Part shown: positions 4,388 through 60,642 of the stretch, one piece after another
How positions within the stretch are numbered: position 1 is the stretch's first letter
Layout: every line of letters begins with the position of its first letter
Origin: a phage
Length of the DNA stretch: 64,000 nt
Assembly (NCBI GenBank): GCA_033664045.1
Contig: GCA_033664045.1_3674.1
Direction: 5' to 3' (one strand)
Position numbers and translations under genes: made by a program
Notes under the pieces: model-generated
Seen by the model: only the letters and a program-made list of their open reading frames with translations
Database searches by the model: none
Told to the model about the DNA's origin: nothing

Positions 4388-5056
4388 ATGGCTGTAGCTT
4401 ATCCTACAATACCAATTCCAGATCTTGAAGATGCAGAAACAGTCCTGAGTGATGACTTCTTGGTTGTCAACCAGACTGATGGGACAAGAAAGGCTAAGAT
4501 TGACGATGTTGTCAACGATCTTAGCATTACTAAGATAGTCTATTTCACAGAGGGTGGTTATCTTAAGAGCAAGAAGGACTTTGCTTATGACCCAGAAACT
4601 AAGCGCTACTACACGTGGAACGGGGATTATCCTAAAATAATCCTCCCAGACTCCACTGTAGAGGGTGCTGGAGGTGTGTCTGCAAATGCCTGGTCTGTTT
4701 TTGGTGAGCTTGCTGCAACTTCTTCTGGTAGAATAGTTGATTACGGATCTATCGGTGGTCAGCTTGATATGGATCTTGAAGTTGCGGATACCTTTAAGGT
4801 TCGACTAACTTCAAATACCACAATCTCTTTTGAAAATCAAACAGAAGGTCTTGAAGGGGTGGCGAGAACTATAACCGTATGCATTACTCAGACCTCTGGC
4901 GGCAACAAAGTCTATTGGCCTGGTAATGTTAAATGGTCCTACGGAAGAGATCCTATCCTAACATTTACAGCTGGTGCAACAGACATTTTCAAGTTGGAAA
5001 CCTACGACAACGGGTTAACTTGGTACGGAGCACTGATTATCGCAGGAGCTATCTAA
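4388..5056 (+). CDS. tail fiber/baseplate-associated protein with conserved N-terminal anchor domain
   Basis: N-terminus (DDFLVVNQTDGTRKAKIDDVV...FTEGGYL...DFAY) is paralogous to the N-terminus of the 7691-11491 protein; RBS AAGGAGA. Confidence 0.5.
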   Translation: MAVAYPTIPIPDLEDAETVLSDDFLVVNQTDGTRKAKIDDVVNDLSITKIVYFTEGGYLKSKKDFAYDPETKRYYTWNGDYPKIILPDSTVEGAGGVSANAWSVFGELAATSSGRIVDYGSIGGQLDMDLEVADTFKVRLTSNTTISFENQTEGLEGVARTITVCITQTSGGNKVYWPGNVKWSYGRDPILTFTAGATDIFKLETYDNGLTWYGALIIAGAI

Positions 5057-7690: not shown

Positions 7691-10600
7691 ATGGCTGATA
7701 TTAAAGTTGTCAGAATTGAATCTCTTCCTGCCACTACCGCAGTGACAGAGGATGATTACCTGGTTGTTCAACAACCAGACCTGACCCGTCGTGTAAAAAT
7801 TGGCGATGTTGTCCATGTGGATGGGACTGTTTCTCATGTAATCTCCTTTAAGGAAGGTGGTAAGTTAAACGGCCCAATGGATTTTGCCTACTTCGAAGAG
7901 GAAGACCTCTACCTGCGTTGGAAAGGCGAATTTCCACACACTGTTCCTGCACTGTCTTCACCATACTCCGATGGCGGGATTACTGACGCTGCATGGATGG
8001 TATATACAGATCCGTCCTTAAGGGAGGAGCTGGAATCTACCATTGGCGCATCTATGATCATGACAGCCGAAGGGCAGTCTGTCCAGGATGTGATGGATGT
8101 TACTGTTCAGACAGCTAACGATGCTAAAGCGCTTGCACAGCGTGTAGATTTTGGTACAGTGCACACTGTAGGTGATGTTATCCACCTCGATAACTTTGTT
8201 GGCCCTGCAGTTATTGAAGAGGGAAGAACCACCAACTATCCTTCTGTAGCAGCTGGTGAAAAATTTCTGAACGGTGTGGTATCTCGTCGTGATACTACAA
8301 CTGTTGATGGTATTTTCCGTGGCGCTACCTCCGGAGCAATGTATACCATCGCAGTAACCAACGGTGTAGCGACAACAAAAAGAATAGCACTTCGTGATGA
8401 ATTTAAACGCCTGGAGGCAAACAACCCAACAAGAACAGTTATCCGTGCTGGAGATGATTTAAACACGGCAGGGTACTTGCAGCTTGATGCAACAGGTCGT
8501 TGGGGTATGTGGAACCAACAAACAGCTTCTTGGCAACCTCTTGCTATAGAGCAAGGCGGTACAGGGGCCAGAGATGCCGCTGGAGTCCGTATCAATATCG
8601 GGGCTTTCTATAAGCAACGTGCAGCCCTTGAGCCAAATTTCAATATCAATAATTTGACTGGTAATCAGGATGGTGTATACTACCAGCCGATGACTGCTTA
8701 TGCAACTGAGGCAAATGGTTACCCTGCAGGTTCTGGTGCTGGTCACTTGATTGTTTGGCAGAACAATGCTAACGGCGGTACAGGTTGTCGTCAGGAATAC
8801 TATCCATTCTCTAACGTAGATGTTTGGTATTTGAGAACCTATCAGGCCAACACAAATCAGTGGACTGCATGGCAGCCGATGGTCAGACCTCGTAACGATG
8901 ATACCTTCAGATCTCATATTGGCCTTGGTAAAAACAACTCGCCAGCCTTCGGGCACCTTTACCTAGCTCAATACTCGGGAGATGTTAAATCGGCCTCAGG
9001 TATTCTCCATGGAGATAAATATAATACTGACGGTGTCCTTGAGCATGGATATAGGATCTATTCTGAGGTAAGAAACGACAATAAGGCTTGGTTGACAATC
9101 CACCTGCACAAAGGCGCAAAAGGATCTGAAACTCATAGATATTTAGGCTTCCGTGAGGATGGGGTCTTAGATTGTCCTAAATATATGCAGGTTGGTGATC
9201 TGAACGGTCAGCTGGCAAACTGGGGACTTGGAGAATGGATCCGCAGTTCAGGAGCAGAAAGAGGTTTCTGGGGATCTAAGAAAGCCGCCAAGATGGTTGT
9301 CTGGGATGGTGGGATGGACGAATCCGGTAACGGCACTCTGGAATGGGGTGTTTATAACAACCGGAAGGCCAAGTGGGAACCTTTACCTCAAGCCGCAGGT
9401 GGTACTGGGGCTACAACTTTAGCAGATGCTCAGAATCTGTTCAAAGTCCCTATAGCAGCAGGTGTGAAAGACTTCTTAACACTGCCAAGAACCGCAGGGA
9501 TGGAAGATGGGAAATACTACCCAATCATCGTTAGAACAGATCCGTATTACGCCCCTTCGACAGGTACAGATATTACCATAGTTACCAGATCGTCATCTGG
9601 AAATGACCCTATGAACTGTGCGACCTTACAGTGTCACTATAGAACTGGTGGTTGGACAGACAGAGGAGACTCTTTCTACGGGGTAGTAAATTTCTACCAG
9701 AATGAAAAAGCACTTCTTGGGATGGTTGCTCCAACAAGGGGTAAACAAGAATATGTTGCTTTCTATGTGGAGGCTCGTGCCTTCCCTGTCAGCATATACG
9801 CAAGTAGAAATGTTATCGAAGTGTTTACCAGAGAGCAAGATTACCAGGTTGGCTCTGTAACAGACAATCAGGATGGGGTTAAGTTCGTTGCACCTCTTCA
9901 GTCAGCAGATTTGAATCTTGCTGTTCTAGGAGATAACAACACCAATACCAGACCTATTGTTGACTTCAAAGGTACTTCAGGGTTCTACACTGGCGGCGGC
10001 ACACAGTGGCACTATATAGGCACTGCTGAACGCTATGCTGTGATGAGCAAAATGAATATGCCAAAAGTCGAGCTATGGGCAGACGGTCTTGACTATTTGT
10101 GCTACGGCAGTCCTAGAAAGGCGTTATTCTCTAATGCAGGATTCCAGTGTGCATCAGATGGGACAGAGGATCTGACTAACGGTACGTTTACCTCTAAATG
10201 CGGTAATGGTGCTGGTCTCAAAGGTCAGGCAGAGTTCAGATCTACTCCGGAAGCGGGTCAAGTTATTGTTCGCGATGTTGTAGGCACAGCTCATAGATTC
10301 TACAACTTCAACAAGGATGGTACTTTCTCAGCTCCTGGCGGTTTTGTATGTCATACTGGTGCAGACTGGAACAACCAGTTTGGGCCTAACAACCCTTCTA
10401 AAATAATGGCAGGCAATGTCAACGGACCTGAAGGATCGATGGTTGTTGGTGGGTTGTCTGTGGCGTTTTCTGGAAACTATGCCTTCCAAATGGCTGGTCG
10501 CCTTGATCAGTTATATACCAGATCTATCGAGGGTGGTAACCATAGGGCATGGAACAAGGTTATACAGCACAGAGGACAGGGTCTTGGGACAAACGACCTT

Positions 10601-11491
10601 AACGACTACAAAGGAGATAGGGAGGGTTTTTATCATCAGGAGGCCAATGCTCAAGCCGCACTTGATAAAAACTACCCATGCTCCCAGGCAGGTACTCTCG
10701 TTGTCTACAGAAACTATGCCAACGTTCCAGAGAGTTGCGTACAGGAATATACAACATATCTTGGAGAAAAATTCCTGCGTTATGGAACAACGATAGGTGG
10801 TGTTTTCACATGGGGCCATTGGCAGCAGCTTGGTGGTAAGGGTATCACTCTAAAAACTCAAGGATCCAATCTTGAACCGGAGTTCACAATACACACGGGT
10901 GGTGGGACGGATGTTACCAACACTTCCAACATGCCTTCTAATACAGGCAGGTTGTACTATTGGGGCAATGGCGCAGATAGGAAGAATGTGCTGGAGTTTC
11001 AGATAAGTGATAACTCAACAGTCGCCAGTTGGGTATTCCACTGTGGCGCTAAGACAGATGAGGCTAAATCAAGATATTTTGCTGTCAACGGTACGGTAGA
11101 ATGTACTACTGTTAGCCAAAGTTCCGATAGGGACCTGAAGGATAACATAGAGGTCATACCTAACGCTCTGGAAGCAATTAGAAAAATGAAAGGCTATACC
11201 TACACCTTGAAAGAGAATGGTATGCCTTATGCAGGCGTGATTGCTCAAGAGGTTATGGAAGCATTGCCAGAGGCAGTAGGATCTTTCGTGAAAAGGAAGG
11301 AAATAGAAGGTCCTACTCAAGACGGTATTCCTCTGATGACCGAGGAAAGGTTCTATAACGTTGACTACGCAGCTGTAACAGGCTTGCTTGTCCAGGTTTG
11401 CAGGGAACAGGACGATAAAATAACCGCCCTTGAGGAGCAGGTTAAAAAATTGACAGAGGTTGTTACTGGATTGCAAGAGAAACTGAAGTAA
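7691..11491 (+). CDS. tail fiber/tailspike protein with C-terminal peptidase S74 intramolecular-chaperone domain
   Basis: C-terminal about 130 aa (SDRDLKDNIEVIPNALEAIRKMKGYTYTLKENG...AGVIAQEV) matches the self-cleaving chaperone domain of endosialidase/T5 pb1-type fibers; N-terminus paralogous to the 4388 protein. Confidence 0.8.
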   Translation: MADIKVVRIESLPATTAVTEDDYLVVQQPDLTRRVKIGDVVHVDGTVSHVISFKEGGKLNGPMDFAYFEEEDLYLRWKGEFPHTVPALSSPYSDGGITDAAWMVYTDPSLREELESTIGASMIMTAEGQSVQDVMDVTVQTANDAKALAQRVDFGTVHTVGDVIHLDNFVGPAVIEEGRTTNYPSVAAGEKFLNGVVSRRDTTTVDGIFRGATSGAMYTIAVTNGVATTKRIALRDEFKRLEANNPTRTVIRAGDDLNTAGYLQLDATGRWGMWNQQTASWQPLAIEQGGTGARDAAGVRINIGAFYKQRAALEPNFNINNLTGNQDGVYYQPMTAYATEANGYPAGSGAGHLIVWQNNANGGTGCRQEYYPFSNVDVWYLRTYQANTNQWTAWQPMVRPRNDDTFRSHIGLGKNNSPAFGHLYLAQYSGDVKSASGILHGDKYNTDGVLEHGYRIYSEVRNDNKAWLTIHLHKGAKGSETHRYLGFREDGVLDCPKYMQVGDLNGQLANWGLGEWIRSSGAERGFWGSKKAAKMVVWDGGMDESGNGTLEWGVYNNRKAKWEPLPQAAGGTGATTLADAQNLFKVPIAAGVKDFLTLPRTAGMEDGKYYPIIVRTDPYYAPSTGTDITIVTRSSSGNDPMNCATLQCHYRTGGWTDRGDSFYGVVNFYQNEKALLGMVAPTRGKQEYVAFYVEARAFPVSIYASRNVIEVFTREQDYQVGSVTDNQDGVKFVAPLQSADLNLAVLGDNNTNTRPIVDFKGTSGFYTGGGTQWHYIGTAERYAVMSKMNMPKVELWADGLDYLCYGSPRKALFSNAGFQCASDGTEDLTNGTFTSKCGNGAGLKGQAEFRSTPEAGQVIVRDVVGTAHRFYNFNKDGTFSAPGGFVCHTGADWNNQFGPNNPSKIMAGNVNGPEGSMVVGGLSVAFSGNYAFQMAGRLDQLYTRSIEGGNHRAWNKVIQHRGQGLGTNDLNDYKGDREGFYHQEANAQAALDKNYPCSQAGTLVVYRNYANVPESCVQEYTTYLGEKFLRYGTTIGGVFTWGHWQQLGGKGITLKTQGSNLEPEFTIHTGGGTDVTNTSNMPSNTGRLYYWGNGADRKNVLEFQISDNSTVASWVFHCGAKTDEAKSRYFAVNGTVECTTVSQSSDRDLKDNIEVIPNALEAIRKMKGYTYTLKENGMPYAGVIAQEVMEALPEAVGSFVKRKEIEGPTQDGIPLMTEERFYNVDYAAVTGLLVQVCREQDDKITALEEQVKKLTEVVTGLQEKLK

Positions 11492-21376: not shown

Positions 21377-22417
21377 ATGTCAAAACCTAGTTTTCCATTA
21401 GAGATTTGGGCAGAGGAGGATCAGGTTCTGCCTAACACCCACAGACAGAACAGGCTACGCCCGATTGATGATTTGTGGAGAAAAGGTTGGGATCTTGGTC
21501 AAAAGCCATCCTGTGAAGAACTTAACTATATTTTCAATATGCTCGGGACTTGGGCAAAATACATTGCTGACGAGCAGATCCCCGCTCAAGAAGGCCGCTA
21601 TCTGGTACGTGATAATAACTTGAGTGATCTTTTGAACATCCCTGTTGCCCGTAGAAACCTTGGAATTATTACTAAGGAAGAGGCAGACGCCAGGTATGTA
21701 AAAGTTACAGGTGATACAATGACAGGCCCATTGGGTTTGCAACGTATCAACTTTAAAGCTGCCGAGACAGATAAGGCTTGGATAGAGACAACTATTGGCC
21801 CAGATAAGACAACTCTCGACTTTGGGTTAAGTGATAATATTGGGGCGTTTGATGATGGTGGCACCTCTACAGTAGATGCGTTCCGTTGGAGATTTCAGCC
21901 AACTCAGCCGGACATTAACCCAGAGTTCACTTTGATGTATCTGAACGCAATCACGGCTAATCGTGCGTTGTTGAAAGTGGTGGGCAATGTTGAAGTTGTT
22001 GATAACATGCGATGTAATAACCTCACCATTAGCAGCACAGCAACATTCACCAACTGCAATGTAGCTAGTCAGTTGACGGCTGGGTCAGTATATGTCAATG
22101 GCGGTGCAAGTTGTGACAGTATGGTTGTAAGAAGCCAGCATTGTGTTGTCGGTAACAGAAATGTGGTGCGCTCTGTGAATGGAGTGACGGCTAACGGCAA
22201 CGGAGATGTAACGATCACCATCCCGCAGACAGGTGTACAGGATATCAGAATCGGCGCAAGACTTGTTGATGGTGTTTCTGAATCTCCAGTTCGCAACGGC
22301 TACGTTGTCACAGGTTGGCATTTTGGTGATAAAAAAGAGATGCGTGGTTCAACCTACTGGGCAGGGCCTTTACAGAAACTTGTAAATGGTCAATGGATCA
22401 CTGTTAATTATGCGTAG
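21377..22417 (+). CDS. tail fiber protein, paralog A
   Basis: N-terminus (KPSFPLEIWAEED) and C-terminus (LVNGQWITVNYA) are paralogous to the 23432-24475 protein. Confidence 0.55.
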   Translation: MSKPSFPLEIWAEEDQVLPNTHRQNRLRPIDDLWRKGWDLGQKPSCEELNYIFNMLGTWAKYIADEQIPAQEGRYLVRDNNLSDLLNIPVARRNLGIITKEEADARYVKVTGDTMTGPLGLQRINFKAAETDKAWIETTIGPDKTTLDFGLSDNIGAFDDGGTSTVDAFRWRFQPTQPDINPEFTLMYLNAITANRALLKVVGNVEVVDNMRCNNLTISSTATFTNCNVASQLTAGSVYVNGGASCDSMVVRSQHCVVGNRNVVRSVNGVTANGNGDVTITIPQTGVQDIRIGARLVDGVSESPVRNGYVVTGWHFGDKKEMRGSTYWAGPLQKLVNGQWITVNYA

Positions 22418-23431: not shown

Positions 23432-24475
23432 ATGACTAAACCAGTTATCCCTCTTGATATTTGGGCCAATCAGGATGTTGTGCTTGAAAATACGGGAGAA
23501 TTGAATAAGTCCCAACCAAAAAAAGAAGAGAGATTGAAAGGTTGGGATATGACACAAAGAGTGGCATGTGAAGTTGTTAACTTTGAACTTCACATGCTTT
23601 CTGCGTGGTTAAAGCATTTAACAGAAGATGTTGTCCCAGGATGGGATAATAGATTCTTAAGGGTCACTAATAATCTGGCAGACGTTCCAGACAAAGCTGC
23701 TGCACGTCAAGTTCTCAATGTATACTCGCCTGAAGAAATGGATGACCTTTATGTTGACAAGGCTGGAGACACAATGATCCAGACTCAAACTTTAGGTCTT
23801 CAAAGAATCGAGTTTGCATCCGCGTCAACAGACAATGCGGCGATATACACCACCATAACTCCAGACAAGACGACAATGGATTTCTGGATTATGGACAACA
23901 TCGGTGGTGCTGACGGCACAGATCTTGATGATCCTTCTCACCAAATAGACGGGTTCCGTTGGAGATTTCAACCTTCTGGTGGGCAGCCTGTGTTTTCGGC
24001 TATGAAGCTCAATGCTATAACTGCCAACCGTGCAAGACTGGCTATCCAAGGGAATCTTGAATGCAACGATGCAAAAAGTTCCTCTGCAAATGCCAATTCG
24101 GTCACGATACCAAGAGCCGCTGTTAACGGACAACAATCCTGCGGAAGCGCTCAAATAGGTGGAAGAGTAGATTGTAACGATAAAACCGCCAGAGGTCAAT
24201 ATGCAACAGTTGGTGGAAGAAACGTGGTCCGCAGGGTAAATGGTAGTAGCGCAGACAGTAGTGGTAACCTTACTATTCCTATGCCTAGTAGGGGTGTTGA
24301 AGATGTAAGGATAGCAAACCGTTTCAGAACCACCTACAGAGAATCAAGAGTATACCCTGGGCATGTAATGTGCTCCGGCAATTACGCCTATAAACACCCG
24401 TATCAGGGCGACTATTGGACTGGAGCTATTCAAAAATTTGTAAACGGTCAATGGATCACCATATCTTATGCTTAA
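23432..24475 (+). CDS. tail fiber protein, paralog B
   Basis: Termini conserved with 21377-22417 (KPVIPLDIWANQD ... FVNGQWITISYA); divergent middle. Confidence 0.55.
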   Translation: MTKPVIPLDIWANQDVVLENTGELNKSQPKKEERLKGWDMTQRVACEVVNFELHMLSAWLKHLTEDVVPGWDNRFLRVTNNLADVPDKAAARQVLNVYSPEEMDDLYVDKAGDTMIQTQTLGLQRIEFASASTDNAAIYTTITPDKTTMDFWIMDNIGGADGTDLDDPSHQIDGFRWRFQPSGGQPVFSAMKLNAITANRARLAIQGNLECNDAKSSSANANSVTIPRAAVNGQQSCGSAQIGGRVDCNDKTARGQYATVGGRNVVRRVNGSSADSSGNLTIPMPSRGVEDVRIANRFRTTYRESRVYPGHVMCSGNYAYKHPYQGDYWTGAIQKFVNGQWITISYA

Positions 24476-26554: not shown

Positions 26555-29500
26555 ATGCTTCCAATCCCTTTGCTAAAACTTGGTCGTCATTTCCTCGATA
26601 AGAGGGGTGGAATTAAGGAACTTGCTGTTCTGTCATACCCAATAGACAACAGTGATGGCACAAGCACTACAGTACCCTATGTAAATAGCTTAGCTATACT
26701 TTTTGATGATGGTCAACTTAATATCACGGGCTATAACAGGTTCGGAGAGTGCCGCACTGGGGATCTTGACACGATAAACTACCCCAACGAGGCTGCCTGG
26801 AACGTTGATCATGTGTGGAGAGCAGACCGCGCGTTTGTGATCCGAACTTTTGATAACCAGTTTTTCTACATCGGCTGCACTGCAGGGCTTATCGGGTCTG
26901 ATGCTGCAGGCGGTAATGATGTTTGTGTAAGAGAGTGGACACCTCTCCCTGAACAGATTGTTAAAGGGTTGCACCTTGACACACACCCAGAGCGCCTTGT
27001 TGAGGTGATGGGTGGTATTAACAACACTATTTGGGTTATTGCAGAGGCAGAAGGCACTGGCATACTGAATCTGTATGGATCTGGTAACAACACCTACGGA
27101 TCTTTGCATGTAGATAAAAACCAGCATGCAACTCCTGTAAAGATTGGTGAAACATCGGAAAATCCTGAAACAGGTCCTTGGAAAAACCCAAGCATCAACT
27201 GCGAGGTGCATGACAACTCTGTTATTTTCGGCGGTCCTAGAGGTTTCTGGATTGCTGGATACGACTTTCTGAGAAACAACAGTAGAAACGACCTTGTTTG
27301 GCCTCCTGTGCAGATTACTCGTAACGATTTGAGAGGCATTCCTGCAGATGAGGAGTGGAAAGGGTTTATGTGTGGTCCTAACGGGGCAATAATTGCCACA
27401 CAGAGGATGCACAAACCCAATGACCAGCAGCTTGTTAACGTATTCTACGGGCAAGACGTCTGGGGAGATGACACATGGCGTTCCTTAAATATCACCTACA
27501 CTCATGAGGTGATAATGGCTCGTGGATACGGCACAAGTGGCATTTTCTTCAATAATGGCACTAAGCAGTATCGTGGATTCTCTCGCAACTTGTGTAATGA
27601 TATTGGTGCACAATCTGCAAACAATAGCCCTAGGGCTAATTTTATTCACTATCAGGCTCTGGCTACGGCTAAATACGTCGAGCAACGTCTGCCAGTTAGC
27701 TGGACAGAGAGTGTTTATTTCCAAGGCATCCACAGAGAAGGTTTCTTAGGGACCTTTACTGTTGTTAATGGCAAACTTTGGTGGTCAGGCATCCCAAGGG
27801 GGAGTTTTGCAGGCTCTAACAACCTGTTTGGCGGCAGACTTAATAGTCAGGGGTTCACAGAGGTTCCTGAGAATTGGTATAAAAATGTCCCGGTAGACAG
27901 TTGGGGTGTTGATGATATTTTCGACGTTAACGGTGTTAGCAGCGTTAGCAATATTTACATTGGTGACACGGTCAAGATGAAATTGAAGCCTCAGCCAGAG
28001 GGAGCTACGTTCATTATTGACAAGATTGAACTGGTAAATGCTGCAGGTACGGTTGTTACAGATGCAAATTACCAATTCTCCACCAACTGGAACCACGGCG
28101 GGGCCAACGAGGTTGTTGTTACCCAGTATAACAGAAATGTTAACAGACGTGGCCTGTACTCTGTAAAAATAACCTATCATGACAAGCATGGCACAGGCAG
28201 AACCCATACGACAAGAACTTTGAACTGGAACACCATAGTTCCTGCGTATCCGTCCAACGGCAAGTGGCATACTGTCGGTAGAAACAAACAGTTCCATGTC
28301 AACGATACTGTATACTTCGGGCTTAACGCAGCTCAACCTGTTGTAGAAGGCGATACATCGTATATGGTACGACTCCATAGAATGGATGCCGGGTCTGTAA
28401 CCTACGATGTGACTCAAGAGATCTACGATCAGAGACGTACTACGTATGACAATGTTGTGAAAACACAAGCCTTGTGGGAGTTCAACCCTAACGGCAGAGG
28501 CGGTAAAATGTTGCAGGTCAACGAGCAAAACGGAACATCGTTGACTGTCCATGAGCATCCAGATCCTTGGCCTGATCCTGGAAAACCTAACTCTGGTGCT
28601 CGTACACTGAAAATTGTCAGCCATGATGCAGGATATTTCGGAATACGCTGGGAAGCTACAGTAAGATATGCCGACGGGACAACAAACAACATAGGGATTA
28701 CACTTGGCGGCACTAGTGAAGATAACTCACTGAAAATTGCCTACACCCCTAGAGGCATCTCTATTGACAATATGGATGTTGTTCGCAACGGTTACGGCGA
28801 TGTGAATGTCAAAGTTACTCTTGGCGAACATCTTGGTGGGGAAAGGATCATCATGTATGCCTTTGATCATGACCCTCGCACCAACGGAACCTATGCAGAC
28901 CAGGCGTGGAGTTACCTGATAAGCGCACCTGAGCCAAATACTAAAGAATTCTACTACGGTATGAAGCGAGATGTGTGCAAGAAAACAGGGACACATGACT
29001 GGATTGCGATCTGTGTTAAAGATGAACGCACCGCTTGGAACGAGCCTGTTAACAGATGGTTCATAGGTATTCCCACCCGAAGTGATAAATACGTTGAAGA
29101 ATATATTGTGTGCATGGGCGGCACCAACCTTAATATGTGTTGGAACGAGGATGCAAACAACAAATACTCTGATTATGACTATATGCGGGACTATTCTTGC
29201 AATCAGTGGTTTAACCAACCTGGATATGCTGATCGACAGGCAAGAGTGAATCCTGCAATCTTCACAGATACTCAGGTTTTCTTGACAAAACAGGCTAACG
29301 AGGTTCAGACCTTCAAGAACAAATATGACCCTAACAAGTGGTTTTATAACTGTTATGGCGCATTTTTCTGGGGCCCAGGGGAACTACCTGGTGGTGGGTC
29401 TTGCTTCGAGGCTGCAACTTACGCCAGTGACAGATTCATGGGGCAGGTCAAGAAGTACAAGATAATTCCAGGGCCTGAAACTTTGGGTAATGCTGTTGAT

Positions 29501-32228: not shown

Positions 32229-32429
32229 TTAGTAATATTCCCAACACGACCCATCTTCAGACGGCTGGACACGTTTACCTTCATGATCGACATAGGTGTA
32301 ACCACAGCCTTCACAGATAACAGGGGCCGCATAACCTTCCTTCCACTGGTCTTCTGTGATCAGTCCTTTCAGATCTCCGCAGTCACGACCAAACAACTCT
32401 TCAGAACAATCTTTGCAAAAATCAGCCAT
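32229..32429 (-). CDS. C4 zinc-ribbon protein (66 aa)
   Basis: CKDC...CEGC pairs; RBS GAGGA. Confidence 0.45.
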   Translation of the reverse strand: MADFCKDCSEELFGRDCGDLKGLITEDQWKEGYAAPVICEGCGYTYVDHEGKRVQPSEDGSCWEYY

Positions 32430-35671: not shown

Positions 35672-35905
35672 TTAATCTTCGTAAATCAGGATTTCTGCTT
35701 TAGGTTTTCGTGCTTTCAAGTCCAGCTCTATCCAGTGCACCATAGCTGTTTCAAGAAAAACAGCTTGGATGCATCCGTCCTCAGCGTGCCCCACCAACAT
35801 AACAAGATCTTCACATTCGTCATCTGCATCACGAACATACAGAATCTCCCCAGATTCAAAGTCTTTCACAACCTGATTGCTGGATAATTTACGAATTTTT
35901 GCCAT
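35672..35905 (-). CDS. small hypothetical protein (77 aa), possible member of a small-paralog family
   Basis: RBS GAGGG; weak resemblance to the two upstream small ORFs. Confidence 0.4.
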   Translation of the reverse strand: MAKIRKLSSNQVVKDFESGEILYVRDADDECEDLVMLVGHAEDGCIQAVFLETAMVHWIELDLKARKPKAEILIYED

Positions 35906-35906
35906 A

Positions 35907-36170
35907 TCAGAAACCCTCTAAAAAGCTCTTGTAGAAAATAATTTCAGTATCAACACCAGTCACGATCTTGTCGTTCCTGATTTCATCGGTAAGATAGGTG
36001 TCAAAACGCAGAACCTGTGTGGTATTGTCGCACATCCACTCAGCTGTGACCATGGCGAAAATCTTAGCATCTTCATTATCTGGTGTAAATGTTACCACCT
36101 CACCACATTTAAATTTTTCGATAGGTTGCGTGTTAGCTTTCGGTTCTGCAATAGTGATTTTCGTGGTCAT
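35907..36170 (-). CDS. small hypothetical protein (87 aa)
   Basis: TAATG overlap with the upstream gene. Confidence 0.4.
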   Translation of the reverse strand: MTTKITIAEPKANTQPIEKFKCGEVVTFTPDNEDAKIFAMVTAEWMCDNTTQVLRFDTYLTDEIRNDKIVTGVDTEIIFYKSFLEGF

Positions 36171-36427
36171 TACTCTTCCTCCATAGTTTCACCAAATACT
36201 TCGATACGAGCATCGAGCTCGGTTGCTTTCAGCTCCCCAACAAAGTATTTTAGTTCTTTCTCGTCCAGATCGTAAGCCCACACACAAGAAGAACATGCAG
36301 ATTTCACAATCAGCAGCGTAGATACACGACCTGACTCTGTGATCATGCTCACAATGGTTCCCACAGGGAACGTGTTGATAGCTTTTTTAACTGGGCGTTC
36401 AGCTTTAATTACTACCTCTGTTGCCAT
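36170..36427 (-). CDS. small hypothetical protein (85 aa)
   Basis: Track ORF trimmed to Met4, which has AGAGAGGATG upstream. Confidence 0.4.
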   Translation of the reverse strand: MATEVVIKAERPVKKAINTFPVGTIVSMITESGRVSTLLIVKSACSSCVWAYDLDEKELKYFVGELKATELDARIEVFGETMEEE

Positions 36428-49361: not shown

Positions 49362-49844
49362 ATGTCAGATTTTATGTGGAAAGTAGGTTACGCAGCTCCT
49401 GAAATGTGTGAGGCTTGCTTTGTGAAAATAGGCCGCGAGGATATCGACAAAGTGATCCTTAAGTTTCGTGATGTAGCTGTGATCGGCAACCGAGTGCTTA
49501 AGCACTTAAAGAATCTGAAGCTCACCAAAAAGAAGTTCTTCGGACTTTTCGAAGAGAAAGTTGATGCTTGGACCCATTGCATTCAGGAAGCTAAATCTCA
49601 CTACAGTGCTATCGTTACCCCAGAACGGGTAGCCAAGATGGAAGGACTCATCAACAGCACAGAGTTTGAGTGCCTAAAGGCTGCCCTTGATAGTTATCCG
49701 AAATGCCTCAAGCACTTGGACAAGTATGTGGAAAAGGATGGGGAAATGTATCTCACCCTGGACGCATATTATGAGATGCAAGAAATTTTAAATTTAGATT
49801 TGACATTGGTATCCACCGAGTATACAATAGGTATCCGGGTTTAA
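49362..49844 (+). CDS. hypothetical protein
   Basis: RBS AAGGAGA. Confidence 0.45.
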   Translation: MSDFMWKVGYAAPEMCEACFVKIGREDIDKVILKFRDVAVIGNRVLKHLKNLKLTKKKFFGLFEEKVDAWTHCIQEAKSHYSAIVTPERVAKMEGLINSTEFECLKAALDSYPKCLKHLDKYVEKDGEMYLTLDAYYEMQEILNLDLTLVSTEYTIGIRV

Positions 49845-53447: not shown

Positions 53448-56225
53448 ATGAGTATGTATAGCTTCGATTTTGAGGCCTCTGGGCTTTTGGAAGATCCAGA
53501 CCTTTATTATCACTGCGGCCTGTTTAAAGCGTTGAATAAGAACCGTTTTATGCTGTTCCTTCCTCTGAATGACCGCACACACTACTCCGAGGAGGATATA
53601 GAGAAGGCTAAGAACTTTATTCTGGCAAAGAAAACTCTTTATAAGGATTTTGAAGTTCGCATAGCAGATTTTTCGGAGTTGGAAGGGTGGCTTACAGGAA
53701 ATTCTGACTGGTCACCCACAGCTTTGAACTGCCACAACTGCTACAGCTACGACTTTATGCTGATGGAGAGATTGTCCGGTATTCATTTTGATATGTTCCG
53801 TGATCCTAAGTGTATGGGGACTATCAACGACCACCAGGTTAATCTGTTTGATACATTGGCTATGAGCCGAATTTTGTGGCCTGACCGACCTTTGCCAAAA
53901 GGTTGTCCAGACGCTGTATTCAACCCGGTTACTAAGAAAATGCAGCCTGTTGGTCCTCACGGCCTTATGGCATGGGGCTACGCTCTTGGTAACCAGAAAG
54001 TTCAAATTGATGACTGGCGCGATCTTCCGTTGTGGAAGTATGTGGATCGTGTATTCGAGGACGTTATCATCCAGGAGCTGCTCTGGAAAGAGCTGGTAGC
54101 GGAATCAAAAGGTGTATTCTACGGCAAATCTGACATGCAGAACTTTATGTACGATCCTGCCAAAGAGAAGCCGAAAGGATTCAAGAAGATCACCTGGAAG
54201 AACGCATTACGTCGAGGCATGCTGCAGCACTTCCTGATGGAGCTGCAGGCCCGTCAGGGCGTATACTTCGACATAGATGGAGCTATTGCTTTACGTGACC
54301 GTTGCGATGCGTGGATGAAAGAAATCGCTGATCGTGTTGAACCACAACTGCCTTTAAAAGAGCTGTCAATGTCTCAGCGGCCCAAGTTCCCTGAAAAGCC
54401 GTTTAACCAAGACGGGACAATCTCCAATAATGGTTGGAAATGGTTAAAAGATAAGCTTGGCTATCCTGTAGACATGAGCGCTTTAGAGTTCAAAGCCCCG
54501 CCTAAGAGAGCATTTACCTCTACAGGAGATGTCAGCAAGATGGGGATAAAATGGTGTGAAGAGATGGGATGCAAAGACCCCGATAAGATGGCTGATTTCT
54601 TGAGAGGCTATATTAAGGGCACTTCCACACCACACCCTTTGCCTAAAGAGCTGATGGATCAGGCAATAAGTGATCTACAGCAGAAGCGAATGCCGGACTG
54701 CAAGATACCTATGAAAATCAGCAACCAGGACGACATTAAGCGATACCTGATCAGTGCTGGCTGGCTTCCGACAATGTGGAGAACTAAGGATGTAACTAAA
54801 GACAGCAAGAAGAAAGCTTTACCTGATGCAGATGTTGATGCACGAGTATATGCATATATGGACGAGCTTTTGGAGTCAGAGTATTGTGACCTAATTATCA
54901 ACTTCTGGAACAAAACTGATGCTAAGTTCCAGACAACCGTGCACAAGTTCCGAAGCTTTCCTAACTCCGAAAGGATTAAAAAGGAAGTATTCGGGAAAAT
55001 ACGTAGAAAAGCTAGGGCACTTATTACTTCTCCGCAACTGAAAGATACGTTTGGACACCTATGCCCAAATCTTGAAAAATTGAACGGAGAGATGGCTAAA
55101 GATATCGTCTTGTGGTTATCATTGCGAAACCGCAGATCGGTCCTTGATCCAATCAAGGAGGATAAGGTTGATACTGGTCTTCTTAATCACCCACGCTTGA
55201 AGATTGACCATAAGCTTCCTGCTAAAAGTTCTGGATTAACAAACACTTCCCGACAGAAACACAGTATTTGTGCAAACATGCCTAAACCATCTCCTAAAGT
55301 GGTTATGGGTAAAGAGATGCGTAGTCTGTGGGGTGTTCCTCCAGGATACTTTGAGATCGGTATTGACGGGTCCAACTTAGAGCAGCTTATCGGGGCTTGG
55401 GGTGCCTTTGAGTTCGACAACGGCTTGTATTATGATGTTGTAAGTAACGGGGACGCACACCAAAACAATGCTGAGGCATATACAAAAGTAGCAGGCAGAG
55501 AGGTGTCTCGTAACGACGGTAAACCTATCACGTATGGGGTTATGTACGGGGCACAAAAAGATAAAGTTGCAGACATGCTGGATATCTCTCCAGAGTTGGG
55601 GCAAAGGGTAATCGATGCGCTTTGGGATGCCAACCCAGGTCTTAAGGGGCGTAAAGAGGATCTGGAGAAATTCTGGGAAGCAACTGGTAAGAAGTTTATC
55701 TACTCTTTTGATGGTCATGCCATCTGGACCCGATCTAAACACTCTTTACTTAATGCATACCAACAAAATGGCGGTGCATCGTTGTGTGATTTAGTTGGGA
55801 TACTCATGCACCACCAAATGGTGAGGCGTGGGTGGTACGATGAAGGTGTTCGTCGTATTATCTATTACCATGACGAATATCAGCTTCAAGTACCTGACAC
55901 ACCGAAGTATAAGACTGTGTACACCTTCGACACAATTGAAGAATTGGAAGCATTTAAGGCAGAGCAGGAGGCCAAACTTCATGTGTTCGACGGTCATAAG
56001 TACAAAAAGGCACGCAAGGATGAAAACGGAAACGAAGTGGTTGACAGAGACGGAAACACGGTGTACGATCCTATCTTGAACGATGACGGAAAGCTTGAAC
56101 TTATCTGGAGTCCTGTGGGCGAAATGGTGGTACATTGCTTCTGGCAAGCTTCTAAAATGATGGGAGTCCCGTTCCAGATCACAGGTGAATACTTGTGTGG
56201 TCGTAATTGGGGTGATTGTCACTAA
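53448..56225 (+). CDS. family A DNA polymerase with 3'-5' exonuclease domain
   Basis: Exo I FDFEASGL, motif A GIDGSNLEQ, motif B RNDGKPITYGVMYG, motif C YYHDEYQL. Confidence 0.85.
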   Translation: MSMYSFDFEASGLLEDPDLYYHCGLFKALNKNRFMLFLPLNDRTHYSEEDIEKAKNFILAKKTLYKDFEVRIADFSELEGWLTGNSDWSPTALNCHNCYSYDFMLMERLSGIHFDMFRDPKCMGTINDHQVNLFDTLAMSRILWPDRPLPKGCPDAVFNPVTKKMQPVGPHGLMAWGYALGNQKVQIDDWRDLPLWKYVDRVFEDVIIQELLWKELVAESKGVFYGKSDMQNFMYDPAKEKPKGFKKITWKNALRRGMLQHFLMELQARQGVYFDIDGAIALRDRCDAWMKEIADRVEPQLPLKELSMSQRPKFPEKPFNQDGTISNNGWKWLKDKLGYPVDMSALEFKAPPKRAFTSTGDVSKMGIKWCEEMGCKDPDKMADFLRGYIKGTSTPHPLPKELMDQAISDLQQKRMPDCKIPMKISNQDDIKRYLISAGWLPTMWRTKDVTKDSKKKALPDADVDARVYAYMDELLESEYCDLIINFWNKTDAKFQTTVHKFRSFPNSERIKKEVFGKIRRKARALITSPQLKDTFGHLCPNLEKLNGEMAKDIVLWLSLRNRRSVLDPIKEDKVDTGLLNHPRLKIDHKLPAKSSGLTNTSRQKHSICANMPKPSPKVVMGKEMRSLWGVPPGYFEIGIDGSNLEQLIGAWGAFEFDNGLYYDVVSNGDAHQNNAEAYTKVAGREVSRNDGKPITYGVMYGAQKDKVADMLDISPELGQRVIDALWDANPGLKGRKEDLEKFWEATGKKFIYSFDGHAIWTRSKHSLLNAYQQNGGASLCDLVGILMHHQMVRRGWYDEGVRRIIYYHDEYQLQVPDTPKYKTVYTFDTIEELEAFKAEQEAKLHVFDGHKYKKARKDENGNEVVDRDGNTVYDPILNDDGKLELIWSPVGEMVVHCFWQASKMMGVPFQITGEYLCGRNWGDCH

Positions 56226-56274: not shown

Positions 56275-56559
56275 ATGGTAGTAGAGCCAACAAAAACATT
56301 TACATCCATGACCATTCCTGTTATTATGCAGGTGGAGTGTGTTCAGGTATCTCAAGTGTGGCCTGGCACCAAAATCCCAACAGGGCCTGATTTCTTTCAG
56401 GTTGGGAAAGTGTACAATGTCTGGAAGGCACCAGATTGTTACCCTTTCATTAAAGATGACCGTGGGATGCTGTGGTATCTTGGAAATGACTTGACACTGC
56501 ACCTTGGGAATGCTATTATTGCAGTATTCAGACTTAACAAGAAGGAGACCGATCAATGA
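56275..56559 (+). CDS. small paralog family 1 protein (94 aa)
   Basis: Track ORF trimmed to Met31, which has GAGGAGA upstream; shares FF.VGK.Y.V...IKDD.G..WY with the next two ORFs. Confidence 0.45.
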   Translation: MVVEPTKTFTSMTIPVIMQVECVQVSQVWPGTKIPTGPDFFQVGKVYNVWKAPDCYPFIKDDRGMLWYLGNDLTLHLGNAIIAVFRLNKKETDQ

Positions 56560-56783
56560 CGACTTTGGTTAAAGCTACCTTTGTAGAAGAAAAGATGACA
56601 GACCTGTCATTCTTTAAAGAAGGAAAGACCTACGAGGTTTATTACGATAAAAATCGTGCAAACAAGATGATTAAAGACGAGGAAGGGATTGCCTGGTTTA
56701 TCTCCCATCTGGCAAACGGTGAGTATCATATCTACGGAACCACCCTGCTTGCCAAGTTTGTAGCTGTTGAAGAGGGCCTATGA
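56556..56783 (+). CDS. small paralog family 1 protein (75 aa)
   Basis: RBS AGGAGA; motif FFKEGKTYEVYY...MIKDEEGIAWFISH. Confidence 0.5.
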   Translation: MTTLVKATFVEEKMTDLSFFKEGKTYEVYYDKNRANKMIKDEEGIAWFISHLANGEYHIYGTTLLAKFVAVEEGL

Positions 56784-56974
56784 AAGTAAAGTATCTGGCT
56801 GAGGGTATGAGTAGGTATTTCACCCTTGGTGAAGAATATTGGCCCTTTACAAGCAACGGCGATGTCTACGTGAAAGATAATTCCGGCACGCCGTGGTTTC
56901 TGCACTTTAATGGGCTGGGATACTCCATTTACTGCGGTGCAGTGAACAACACAACACTTGCAGAGTTTGTATAG
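56780..56974 (+). CDS. small paralog family 1 protein (64 aa)
   Basis: Motif YFTLGEEY...YVKDNSGTPWFLHF. Confidence 0.45.
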   Translation: MKVKYLAEGMSRYFTLGEEYWPFTSNGDVYVKDNSGTPWFLHFNGLGYSIYCGAVNNTTLAEFV

Positions 56975-56984
56975 GGGAGGCAGG

Positions 56985-57356
56985 ATGTTAGTAAAAGGTA
57001 CTCACACAGTCAAACAGCGTATTGAAGTTGAGATTGATGATTGTGAGCTGAAGCATATTCTACGGTCATGTTCTAACGTTTTGCTCCTTAGCATTCTTCA
57101 GGAGCGAGCAGAGAACGAGTTCTTAAATGCACTGGCAGGCCGTCCTGGTGACTTCTGTGTGCGTAAGCGTGGTGACAACAAGTCATGGCTGTGGGAAATC
57201 GATGCCGACTGGGATTACCACAAAAATGAGGGTATAGATGAGCCTATTCGTGAATTGACAGACAAAGAGGTTCAGATGTACAATGAAGTTTGTCATTGGG
57301 CAACACGCCAACAAATTTACCTCGACCCTGTGTGGCTGATTGAAAATAGTCATTGA
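56985..57356 (+). CDS. hypothetical protein (123 aa)
   Basis: Track ORF trimmed to Met10, which has GGGAGG upstream. Confidence 0.45.
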   Translation: MLVKGTHTVKQRIEVEIDDCELKHILRSCSNVLLLSILQERAENEFLNALAGRPGDFCVRKRGDNKSWLWEIDADWDYHKNEGIDEPIRELTDKEVQMYNEVCHWATRQQIYLDPVWLIENSH

Positions 57357-57432
57357 CAAGAAGTAAGATTAGATATAAGATGTTTCACACAAACAGAGCG
57401 TTGATTTTTAAATAACTAAGGAGACTGCCAAG

Positions 57433-57687
57433 ATGAAAATTACTTTGAAGCCAGAATGCGTTGAAAATGACCGAGCTTTTAAAGATTGCACAGTCGGTGC
57501 AATTTATGAAGCAGAGTTTTGTGAGAACCCTCTGGTAAAAGCCCTTCTGGAAGAAGGGGCCCCTTTATCACAAGAAGAGATCGATGAGCTGGAAAACTCA
57601 GCACAGTGCCTTACCTTTAAAGATGATGAAGGAGACTCTGTCTGGTGCACTGTTAATGAAGTAGTTTTTGTAAAACCTGAACATTAA
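57433..57687 (+). CDS. small paralog family 2 protein (84 aa)
   Basis: RBS AAGGAGA; KPECVENDRAFKDCT...FKDDEGDSVWCT is paralogous to the 57751 protein. Confidence 0.5.
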   Translation: MKITLKPECVENDRAFKDCTVGAIYEAEFCENPLVKALLEEGAPLSQEEIDELENSAQCLTFKDDEGDSVWCTVNEVVFVKPEH

Positions 57688-57690
57688 TAC

Positions 57691-57719
57691 TTGACAACAG
57701 TGATAGGGCCTAATATAAT
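57691..57719 (+). promoter_or_regulatory. consensus sigma70 promoter TTGACA-N17-TATAAT with -10 inside a 9-bp inverted repeat
   Basis: Hexamers at 57691-57696 and 57714-57719; gatagggcc (57702-57710) and ggccctatc (57720-57728) flank the -10. Confidence 0.6.
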
Positions 57720-57750
57720 GGCCCTATCAAAACGAAAGGGGACCACAGCA

Positions 57751-58023
57751 ATGACCAAACAATATCAACGAATTAAAGCCAAGGTTAAGCCAGACTATCT
57801 GGAGAAGGACTCTGCTTTTCGGGACTGCACAGCTGACAAAGTTTACACAGGTGCCGTCCTGTTGAACGATGAACTTGAAGTAGATATTCTGGGTAAAGAG
57901 GCCACTATTAAGGACGACCAAGGCGATTATGTTTGCTGCACCACACGTGAGCTAGAAATCTTAGAATACTTCGGTGAAATCTTCACCTCTCTTGATGATT
58001 ACTTAGACGACGAGGAAGCGTAA
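57751..58023 (+). CDS. small paralog family 2 protein (90 aa)
   Basis: Track ORF (TTG at 57691) trimmed to Met21, downstream of the promoter; KPDYLEKDSAFRDCT...IKDDQGDYVCCT. Confidence 0.5.
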   Translation: MTKQYQRIKAKVKPDYLEKDSAFRDCTADKVYTGAVLLNDELEVDILGKEATIKDDQGDYVCCTTRELEILEYFGEIFTSLDDYLDDEEA

Positions 58024-59050: not shown

Positions 59051-59416
59051 ATGGAACAAATGAACGATCAAGCGTCGGTTGCGATGAACGAGCAAGAACA
59101 ACCTCAAGAATTTTTCTTAGGGTTAAGTAAAGATCAAGTGTCTCTTCTGCTAGTGCTTTCTTCTTTCATGGGAAGACTTCAGGAGCTCACACAACAGCCA
59201 GAGGCTGAACAATTATTCCAAGCTTTGCGTGAAGAAGAAAAATATCGTCGTTTGGACTATGCCTTAGGTTGGGTAGCTCAACAACGAGATATGCTAATGG
59301 CCCTCTCTGGGACTACAAGTTTTGCAATGGGCCTGTTGGCTCAAGTTCAGGACAAATTAATTCAAGCAGGGTTTGCACACACGGCAAACACTAACGAAGA
59401 ACAAGGAGATAAATAA
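59051..59416 (+). CDS. hypothetical protein (121 aa)
   Basis: RBS GGAGA. Confidence 0.45.
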   Translation: MEQMNDQASVAMNEQEQPQEFFLGLSKDQVSLLLVLSSFMGRLQELTQQPEAEQLFQALREEEKYRRLDYALGWVAQQRDMLMALSGTTSFAMGLLAQVQDKLIQAGFAHTANTNEEQGDK

Positions 59417-60642
59417 TGAGCGTTATTCAACAATTCGCTAACCCAATGAATCCGCGTGAAACTGTTTTACTGGCTCACGGCATGATTAAACGTGTTAGCA
59501 TCAAGCCTATCAAAGGTGCTGATCCTACAACAGGTATTAAAACCACTGTGTGGCAAGGTAAGAAAATTGAATCCAGCCACACCATCTCTTTACTGATTTC
59601 TGAACTGGATTCCTCTGATAACCTGCTTCAAGGTGGTGAAGAAGTCTGGATCAGCATGGGTGATAAGCTGCTTAAACCAGGTCATCAAGACTCTGTCTCT
59701 GTTAAGATTGATGACAAGTGGGAAACCGTAACGCCAGGATGGATCGTAAATATCCCTTTGAAGGCAAACGAGCATAACGGTAAGACCTATTACAAGGGCT
59801 CACTGGCTAAGATGGTTAAGCTGGGTGCAGGAGAGGCTCCAGCAGCGACTCAGCAGCAAAAACAGCAACAAGGTGCACAATCACAAGGCCAGAAGCAGAA
59901 ACCTCAGCAGAATGCCAATCAGGACGTTTTACGCATCTATGGTGATGTGACTCAGATTGTTGGCAACGTGGTTACTGTTAATGACCACAAGATTGGCGAA
60001 GGTGCTATGGTTGTAACTGATGAGCAGCTTAAAGACCTGGTGGTAGGTGGTCGTGTTGCAGCCATTGTTGACAAAGACACCGGAAACATTATCAGTGGTT
60101 TCAAGGCCTATCCCCCTAAGGCAGAGAACGGCACTCAAGGCTCTGGTGGCAAGCGTAAATCCTCTTACGACCCTATCGGTGTGGAAACGGGGCATAGCAT
60201 CAATGCGTTGCAGATCATCCTGGATCGCGGGTTTAAGGTAGACGACCCGCTGGGCGTGGCTAAAACACTGCACGTAGTCACCATTGAGCTTAAGAAAGAG
60301 TATGCTCAAGCCACCAACCGAACTGAAGATGAAGTAGGTGCCAGTGTCGGTAATGCGGTGTTGAACGCTTGTCGCCGTATTGACAAGAAAACGAAAGTTG
60401 ATGATTTTGCAGCGGCAATTACTGCAGAAGCAAAAGATGTCTTGACTAATCTGGCTGAACCGTTGTACGATTGGATCAAGAACGGTGCTGGGTCAACCGA
60501 CCATCAAGAACCTCAGGCTGCCAAACAGGAAGCAGCTCCACAGCAAAACACTGTAGACGCTCCTCCTGTAAATGATGAGGAAGATGACCCAATGGATCAG
60601 AATCCAGCACAGTACGCCTTTGATGATGACATCCCTTTTTAA
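59416..60642 (+). CDS. ssDNA-binding protein-like with Gln-rich linker and host-SSB-type C-terminal tail (DDDIPF)
   Basis: Protein ends ...AQYAFDDDIPF, identical to the E. coli SSB C-terminal hexapeptide; low-complexity QQQKQQQGAQSQGQKQKPQQ linker; RBS AAGGAGA. Confidence 0.55.
   Translation: MSVIQQFANPMNPRETVLLAHGMIKRVSIKPIKGADPTTGIKTTVWQGKKIESSHTISLLISELDSSDNLLQGGEEVWISMGDKLLKPGHQDSVSVKIDDKWETVTPGWIVNIPLKANEHNGKTYYKGSLAKMVKLGAGEAPAATQQQKQQQGAQSQGQKQKPQQNANQDVLRIYGDVTQIVGNVVTVNDHKIGEGAMVVTDEQLKDLVVGGRVAAIVDKDTGNIISGFKAYPPKAENGTQGSGGKRKSSYDPIGVETGHSINALQIILDRGFKVDDPLGVAKTLHVVTIELKKEYAQATNRTEDEVGASVGNAVLNACRRIDKKTKVDDFAAAITAEAKDVLTNLAEPLYDWIKNGAGSTDHQEPQAAKQEAAPQQNTVDAPPVNDEEDDPMDQNPAQYAFDDDIPF

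Follow-up and report, generated by a model that had tools for sequence, protein, structure and literature searches.

Duplicated genes behind the DNA polymerase

The DNA analysed here, referred to as the window, is a 64,000-nucleotide stretch of a phage contig (GCA_033664045.1_3674.1, assembly GCA_033664045.1), and its positions 56,275 to 58,023 contain two groups of small open reading frames (ORFs) behind a DNA polymerase gene (Table 1). Computation shows that these are two independent, tandemly duplicated families of small acidic proteins, predicted to be β-barrels, and that they belong to the transcription unit of the replication genes in an rV5-like phage. Family A consists of A1, A2 and A3 and family B of B1 and B2. 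Primase/helicase and a T7-like family A DNA polymerase come first, followed in order by A1, A2, A3, X, B1, B2, C1, C2 (DUF7238), C3, C4 and a 408-residue protein resembling single-stranded DNA-binding protein (SSB). A first-pass annotation made from the sequence alone had placed two sets of related ORFs here, one at 56275, 56556 and 56780 and the other at 57433 and 57751. All five are present with the motifs ascribed to them, except that the FFxxGKxY motif claimed for the whole of family A is found in A1 and A2, whereas A3 has YFTLGEEY. ATGA stop/start overlaps at the A1/A2 and A2/A3 junctions suggest translational coupling of the three A genes.

Table 1. Positions and properties of the genes and sequence elements discussed in the text. 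dN/dS, pooled ratio of non-synonymous to synonymous substitution rates; RBS, ribosome-binding site; pI, isoelectric point.
Feature	Position	Strand	Residues	dN/dS	PHROG	Remarks
M1	35672-35905	-				paralogy unproven
M2	35907-36170	-				probable distant paralogue of M3
M3	36170-36427	-				probable distant paralogue of M2
DNA polymerase, T7-like family A	53448-56225	+		0.02 (C-terminus)		uninterrupted in the window
A1	56275-56559	+	94	0.01	phrog_12922	N-terminal extension; RBS AGGAG 7 nt upstream; 3 of 94 columns variable in 10 genomes
A2	56556-56783	+	75	0.18	phrog_12623	central A member; predicted six-stranded β-barrel with long β1-β2 loop
A3	56780-56974	+	64	0.11	phrog_12802	shares phrog_3249 cross-match with A2
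X	56985-57356	+	123	0.10	phrog_6273	conserved gene between the two arrays
Promoter upstream of B1	57353-57381	+				σ70-like, TTGACA-17-TAAGAT; kept in 10 genomes; P220 in the rV5 RefSeq annotation
B1	57433-57687	+	84	0.10		pI 4.2
Promoter for B2	57691-57719	+				σ70, TTGACA-17-TATAAT; 12/12 consensus match
Inverted repeat, 10 bp, perfect	57701-57710 / 57720-57729	+				TGATAGGGCC/GGCCCTATCA; -10 hexamer of the B2 promoter in the 9-nt loop
B2	57751-58023	+	90	0.12		pI 4.2; predicted five-stranded SH3-like barrel with acidic C-terminal helix
C3	58722-58967	+	81		phrog_4927	weak DUF7244 match
SSB-like protein	59416-60642		408		phrog_4477	labelled SSB in one relative

Paralogy was assessed by comparing Smith-Waterman scores with 1000 shuffles (z scores and Gumbel P values) and by pairwise BLASTP. 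The B1-B2 pair is the strongest (z 16.3, P 5e-10; BLASTP E 2e-11), and A1-A2 (z 9.8, P 2e-6; E 1e-6) and A2-A3 (z 7.3, P 5e-5; E 2e-5) are also clear; A1-A3 reaches z 3.1 and is joined via A2. When 44 plausible small ORFs of the window were compared all against all (946 pairs), B1-B2, A1-A2 and A2-A3 took ranks 1, 3 and 4, and every other pair but one, which is unrelated, stayed below z 5. In the PHROG database, A2 matches the family of A1, A2 and A3 both match phrog_3249, and B1 and B2 each match the family of the other at about 1e-6. A tblastn search with B2 also picks up the B1 locus in nearly all Vequintavirus genomes (230 places in 116 records). Shuffles, pairwise BLASTP and PHROG cross-matches thus bear out the proposal of the first-pass annotation that these are two tandem arrays of diverged small paralogues, with similarity significant beyond composition. 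The possibility that the motifs are shared by chance or composition, or that the ORFs are not genes, could draw on a database-scale, composition-corrected BLASTP among 417 ORFs, which reports B1-B2 alone at E < 0.05. However, it is virtually eliminated by the shuffle, BLAST and PHROG statistics and by dN/dS far below 1 at substantial dS (about 0.2-0.4, pooled over ten genomes spanning Vequintavirus that were compared in detail). The high specificity of the family hidden Markov model (HMM) and a confident AlphaFold2 model also argue against it. A relationship between families A and B is not established (hhalign at most 11%), and X has no significant similarity to A, B or C3 by shuffle alignment or hhalign.

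More than 100 Vequintavirus (rV5-like) E. coli myoviruses match the 2.4 kb surrounding the arrays at 96-98% identity. They include HdK5, nimi and the BASEL phage Bas48 CarlMeissner, the last of which is 98.4% identical in the array region, and the array ORFs are labelled 'hypothetical protein' in all annotated relatives. Pfam and NCBIfam scans of the ten small ORFs gave nothing significant apart from DUF7238 for C2, and no functionally annotated PHROG matches the A or B proteins. When A2, B1 and an A1-A2-A3 profile were used as queries in word-indexed searches of 5.8 billion proteins, the matches were essentially Vequintavirus orthologues alone, and tblastn matches of A2 and B2 in 50,697 phage records were confined to 116 Vequintavirus records. 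Over the array region, sixteen MG0656xx records labelled 'Campylobacter phage', with C. jejuni given as host, show 93-99% identity to E. coli Vequintaviruses; they may carry wrong host labels or represent contaminant isolates. In relatives including ime, A147, SophiaRose, WM, isim and rV5, an HNH homing endonuclease insertion splits the DNA polymerase gene, which is intact in the window.

B1 has an insertion of about 15 residues relative to B2, situated between the conserved N- and C-terminal motifs. The -35 hexamers of the promoters of both B genes are invariant in the ten genomes. The consensus promoter that the first-pass annotation had assigned to the second B gene is present, and its -10 hexamer reads TATAAT or TACAAT in these genomes. 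The annotated start of B2 (57718, giving 101 residues) overlaps this hexamer, and ATG 57751, the start adopted in the first-pass annotation, is preceded by a good ribosome-binding site (AAAGGGGA); for both reasons ATG 57751 is the likelier start. As RNA, the inverted repeat around the -10 hexamer is thermodynamically unusual (-19.6 kcal/mol, z -3.45). The eight sequences compared, a small sample, differ in it by one compensatory GC to AU pair, by two wobble changes and by one mismatch. These changes are suggestive of a structure, which might act as an operator, as a 3' stabiliser or attenuator for the B1 transcript, or as a structured promoter. Many B1 orthologues in the databases (P0038-P0044, as well as B1 as annotated in JLBYU08) carry a frameshift or truncation in the central segment LLEEGAPLSQ, around 57548-57570, whose coding sequence includes a G4C4 run. 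The cause could be a hotspot of mutation, decay of the gene in some lineages or sequencing error in the homopolymer.

A predicted barrel and its distribution in phages

AlphaFold2, given a 24-sequence alignment of A1, A2 and A3 orthologues and no templates, produced a confident model of A2 (predicted local distance difference test 91.4, predicted template modelling score 0.79) with six strands and a short helix inside the long β1-β2 loop. A six-stranded small β-barrel with a long β1-β2 loop is also the structure of Gp54 of phage Bas11 (PDB 9AXB; 9ERV in complex; family phrog_7421), and family A is thus predicted to adopt a rare barrel known experimentally from this protein alone. Amino-acid changes in A2 and A3 are concentrated in the β2-β4 strands and turns (residues 21-48 of A2), and the strands that close the barrel are invariant. 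In an A1 orthologue of 105 residues (P0045), a stretch of 11 residues from the β2-β3 hairpin region of the A1 barrel is present twice in tandem (KAPDCHPFIKE / KAPNCYPFIKD). Family B, modelled on B2, is tentatively predicted to form a five-stranded SH3-like barrel followed by a very acidic C-terminal helix.

In the fused toxin-antitoxin CapRelSJ46, Gp54 Bas11 binds the pseudo-zinc-finger domain with a dissociation constant of 800 nM, and its partial unfolding and formation of a hybrid β-sheet lead to activation of the toxin (Zhang et al., Nature 2024, PMC11578894). The phage can do without Gp54 in the laboratory, and no function is known for it; close homologues, such as that of Bas10 with three substitutions, fail to trigger CapRel, and its β-barrel topology has been described as very rare in nature (PMC11578894). 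Gp54 is a single gene in Bas11 and belongs to the Drexlerviridae, siphoviruses of about 50 kb, whereas the A genes belong to a myovirus of 137 kb, where three to four diverged copies stand in tandem. It is Gp54 that binds CapRel, unfolds in doing so and is dispensable; the A proteins are likened to it by their predicted fold.

A1, A2 and A3 each form a genus-restricted PHROG of their own. A common signature, hydrophobic-x-C/V ... F(T/F)xGKxY ... (D/K)DxxGxxW(F/Y), nevertheless connects them with phrog_3249, 3523, 9122, 4927, 16833 and 17857 (weak Pfam DUF7244), which also occur in multi-copy organisation. Membership of this A-domain superfamily was taken as profile-level similarity across the F(T/F)xGKxY ... 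DDxGxxW core, which the A proteins show. The A profile, run exhaustively with HMMER against 1.84 billion representative proteins, gave 15 matches in all. Those in proteins of 1,600-2,600 residues (ankyrin, β-helix and fn3 proteins) were discarded as repeat artefacts. The relatives retained from outside the genus have either a single domain (P0067, P0072, P0075) or tandem copies of it, namely two in P0074, three in P0076 and four in P0070. These outside relatives match the A PHROGs plus phrog_3249, 3523, 9122 and 4927, and P0076 and P0075 match both phrog_4927 and the A PHROGs. In other phages the domain is fused into polypeptides of two to four copies, whereas in the window it is split among genes that appear to be translationally coupled.

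When the A profile was broadened with these outside relatives, C3 aligned to it with an hhalign probability of 80-82% (E 1e-5) and was the top non-A match of the broadened HMM among the 417 ORFs of the window (E 5e-4). On these grounds C3 is probably a fourth, more diverged member of the A-domain group. That the domain generally comes in several copies is supported by genomic context. P0072 is encoded on a 137-kb contig of a divergent rV5-like phage (AATLQU010000010.1, GCA_012894635.1) with the same synteny and five A copies. The peculiarities of that contig (5203-5805 and 6709-7111) are an Ead/Ea22-like gene of 200 residues plus a 63-residue ORF between A1 and A2, two additional A2-like paralogues, a 300-bp gap after A2, and an extra 90-residue ORF ahead of B1. 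P0070, on a phage-like contig carrying a Prim-Pol gene, adjoins a second gene with four domain copies, and P0075 is followed by a 141-residue protein with a further copy at its N-terminus. In BFVD, a Foldseek search brought up about 50 small proteins of phages that have the fold of A2 (TM 0.6-0.8), mostly from Drexlerviridae and often several per genome, and others from Certrevirus CR9, phAPEC8 and Klebsiella phages. One of the BFVD entries, A0A6B9X1Z6 (78 residues, 'putative minor capsid protein'), comes from phage isim, has the A2 fold at TM 0.68 and is not among A1-A3. The 32 kb of isim that were searched do not contain its gene, and it could be a further paralogue elsewhere in that genome.

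Candidate roles of the A and B proteins

There is about an even chance that the A and B proteins are non-enzymatic protein-binding modules acting on host proteins. They would probably recognise their partners via exposed β-hairpins and edge strands, much as Gp54 Bas11 clamps the zinc-finger-like sensor domain of CapRelSJ46 by β-sheet augmentation, and duplication with divergence would yield either several specificities or one multivalent assembly. The partners would most likely be host proteins, in takeover or counter-defence, and proteins of this type might also act as triggers of defence sensors. A protein-binding role is suggested because Gp54, the only characterised structural relative, works by protein-protein β-sheet augmentation, and because the variation in family A gathers on one hairpin surface. 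By Rosetta-stone logic, the recurrence of the domain as fusions of two to four copies suggests that the separate A copies act together. No enzyme signature is found in any of the proteins. All of them are acidic, which argues against nucleic-acid binding, and the proposal that they are small barrels of the Sm, OB, KOW or cold-shock-like kind acting on phage DNA or RNA is very improbable.

The first-pass annotation had suggested that the arrays encode host-takeover or anti-defence factors. This idea is compatible with the data, not demonstrated by them. It is favoured by the fold match to Gp54, a dispensable protein sensed directly by a defence system, and by the acidic, non-enzymatic nature of the proteins, the σ70-type promoters and the variable copy number in the divergent relative. 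In T7, the small, often acidic class II proteins gp5.5, gp5.7 and gp5.9, encoded after the gene 5 DNA polymerase, bind H-NS, RNA polymerase and RecBCD. Like them, the A and B genes directly follow a T7-type family A DNA polymerase gene; the likeness is purely positional and serves only as a lead.

Several observations weigh against host proteins as the targets. None of the five genes is missing or disrupted in any of the ten genomes, save that B1 of JLBYU08 has an altered N-terminus, and A2 and B2 turn up in about 116 Vequintavirus records. The constraint on A1 matches that on the DNA polymerase. Such regular presence and strong purifying selection, especially on A1, are unusual for counter-defence or arms-race accessory genes and would fit just as well with a housekeeping function within the replication module. 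Pfam, NCBIfam and PHROG comparisons gave no homology of the A or B proteins to characterised anti-defence or host-takeover inhibitors, and we infer early expression of these genes from their promoters alone. The B2 model was built from 7 sequences, and two of its five AlphaFold2 models are poor. Finally, since Gp54 is itself without a known native function, the analogy carries a binding mode and not a role; no literature was found on the function of the rV5 small ORFs, or on that of Gp54 beyond CapRel triggering.

The main rival is that the A and B proteins are accessory subunits or regulators of the replisome, binding the phage DNA polymerase, the primase-helicase or the downstream SSB-like protein. 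It is less probable than not by a clear measure and draws its strength from position, conservation in all genomes compared and the constraint on A1. The arrays lie between the primase-helicase and polymerase genes and the SSB-like protein, which ends in ...YAFDDDIPF and has a long Gln/Lys-rich low-complexity linker; this DDDIPF end closely resembles the C-terminal protein-interaction tail of E. coli SSB. The gene order is preserved in all ten genomes and in the divergent contig AATLQU010000010.1, and the polymerase-like constraint on A1 fits such a role as well. A core replication factor would, however, be expected to co-occur with its polymerase. Seunavirus 4MG, Certrevirus CR8, the unclassified Klebsiella phage Iguana and ICP1 retain the same polymerase and primase-helicase, but HMM searches of the 6 kb that flank the polymerase gene on each side gave no significant match to either array. 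The number of A copies ranges from 3 to 5, and Gp54, the sole structural relative to have been studied, is dispensable, both of which also speak against a replisome subunit.

The likeness between family A and Gp54 might be a convergence on a small barrel or a prediction artefact, and would then be functionally uninformative. Small β-barrels recur by convergence, and the A2 model is a prediction from 24 closely clustered sequences. At the sequence level, the A-family HMM did not recover 9axb from the PDB sequences at E ≤ 10. Gp54 (from MZ501085, with six homologues from other Drexlerviridae added) matched phrog_7421 alone among the PHROGs, and hhalign of family A against Gp54 gave probabilities of 0.1-3.9% (E 0.011-0.5), marginally above negative controls. 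Even so, the best of these statistically non-significant alignments places FKKG on FKEG and GLTW on GIAW, at the structurally expected positions. It also sets the CapRel-escape residue G24 of Gp54, the glycine before β2, against a near-invariant A-family glycine. In the 24-sequence alignment, the columns matching G24 and the G-x-x-W turn are invariant or nearly so. Because the profile scores lie near those of negative controls though the key motifs align in register, family A and Gp54 are best described as having the same predicted fold, with homology possible and unproven. A wholly uninformative resemblance is considered unlikely.

Binding to host proteins may be extended to a broader conjecture, which is rather unlikely. 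The Gp54-like barrel would define a large and hitherto unrecognised superfamily of phage 'beta-augmentation clamp' proteins that neutralise zinc-finger-like or β-sheet sensor domains of host immunity. A1-A2-A3 (with C3) and the fusions of two to four copies would be multivalent batteries, each copy directed at a different host sensor, and CapRel sensing would be a case of the host turning an inhibitor into a trigger.

The A and B genes were already known as hypothetical ORFs and PHROGs, and the rV5 genome paper makes no mention of paralogues. What is new is their paralogy, the fold-level link of family A to Gp54 Bas11, and the sign that a fold regarded as rare is a widespread multi-copy phage domain. 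The results suggest that the Gp54-type fold is common among small coliphage proteins, in tandem arrays and multi-copy fusions, with three or four predicted copies in every Vequintavirus examined. The many added members, including those of the genetically tractable BASEL phages Bas48-52, can help to establish the job of the fold and whether immune sensors target it repeatedly. A fold-level annotation is also gained for several 'hypothetical proteins' that recur in phages of O157 typing and therapy, with more than 100 genomes. Should the function turn out to be mundane, the arrays would be a case of ordinary tandem duplication among small phage accessory genes.

Other paralogous genes in the window

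A set of minus-strand genes (M1, M2 and M3) had been mentioned in the first-pass annotation as weaker and possibly related to the arrays. The three fall into three different PHROGs without cross-matches, with pairwise z of 2.4-3.9. Phage isim has two tandem M3-type genes next to a metallopeptidase gene (isim_76 and isim_77; 28757-29283 of the isim stretch; z 18; both pVOG VOG5597), where the window has one. Because a profile that includes these isim duplicates aligns to M2 with an hhalign probability of 76% (E 2e-5 over 75 columns), M2 and M3 are probable paralogues and would form a third, independent pair. The membership of M1 is unproven, and a relation of the set to the arrays found no support: profile comparisons of M1, M2 and M3 with A, B, C3 and Gp54 showed none.

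Elsewhere, a Cys-rich protein of 66 residues (32229-32429, minus strand) has a segment in common with the N-terminus of a 160-residue protein (49362-49844, plus strand; z 8.7; BLASTP 53% over 19 residues, E 0.003), which is a further dispersed paralogous motif and possibly a zinc ribbon. In the structural region, the products of 21377-22417 and 23432-24475 are 43% identical over 356 residues (E 6e-94), and those of 4388-5056 and 7691-11491 match at E 1e-16; both pairs are presumably duplicated tail or baseplate components.

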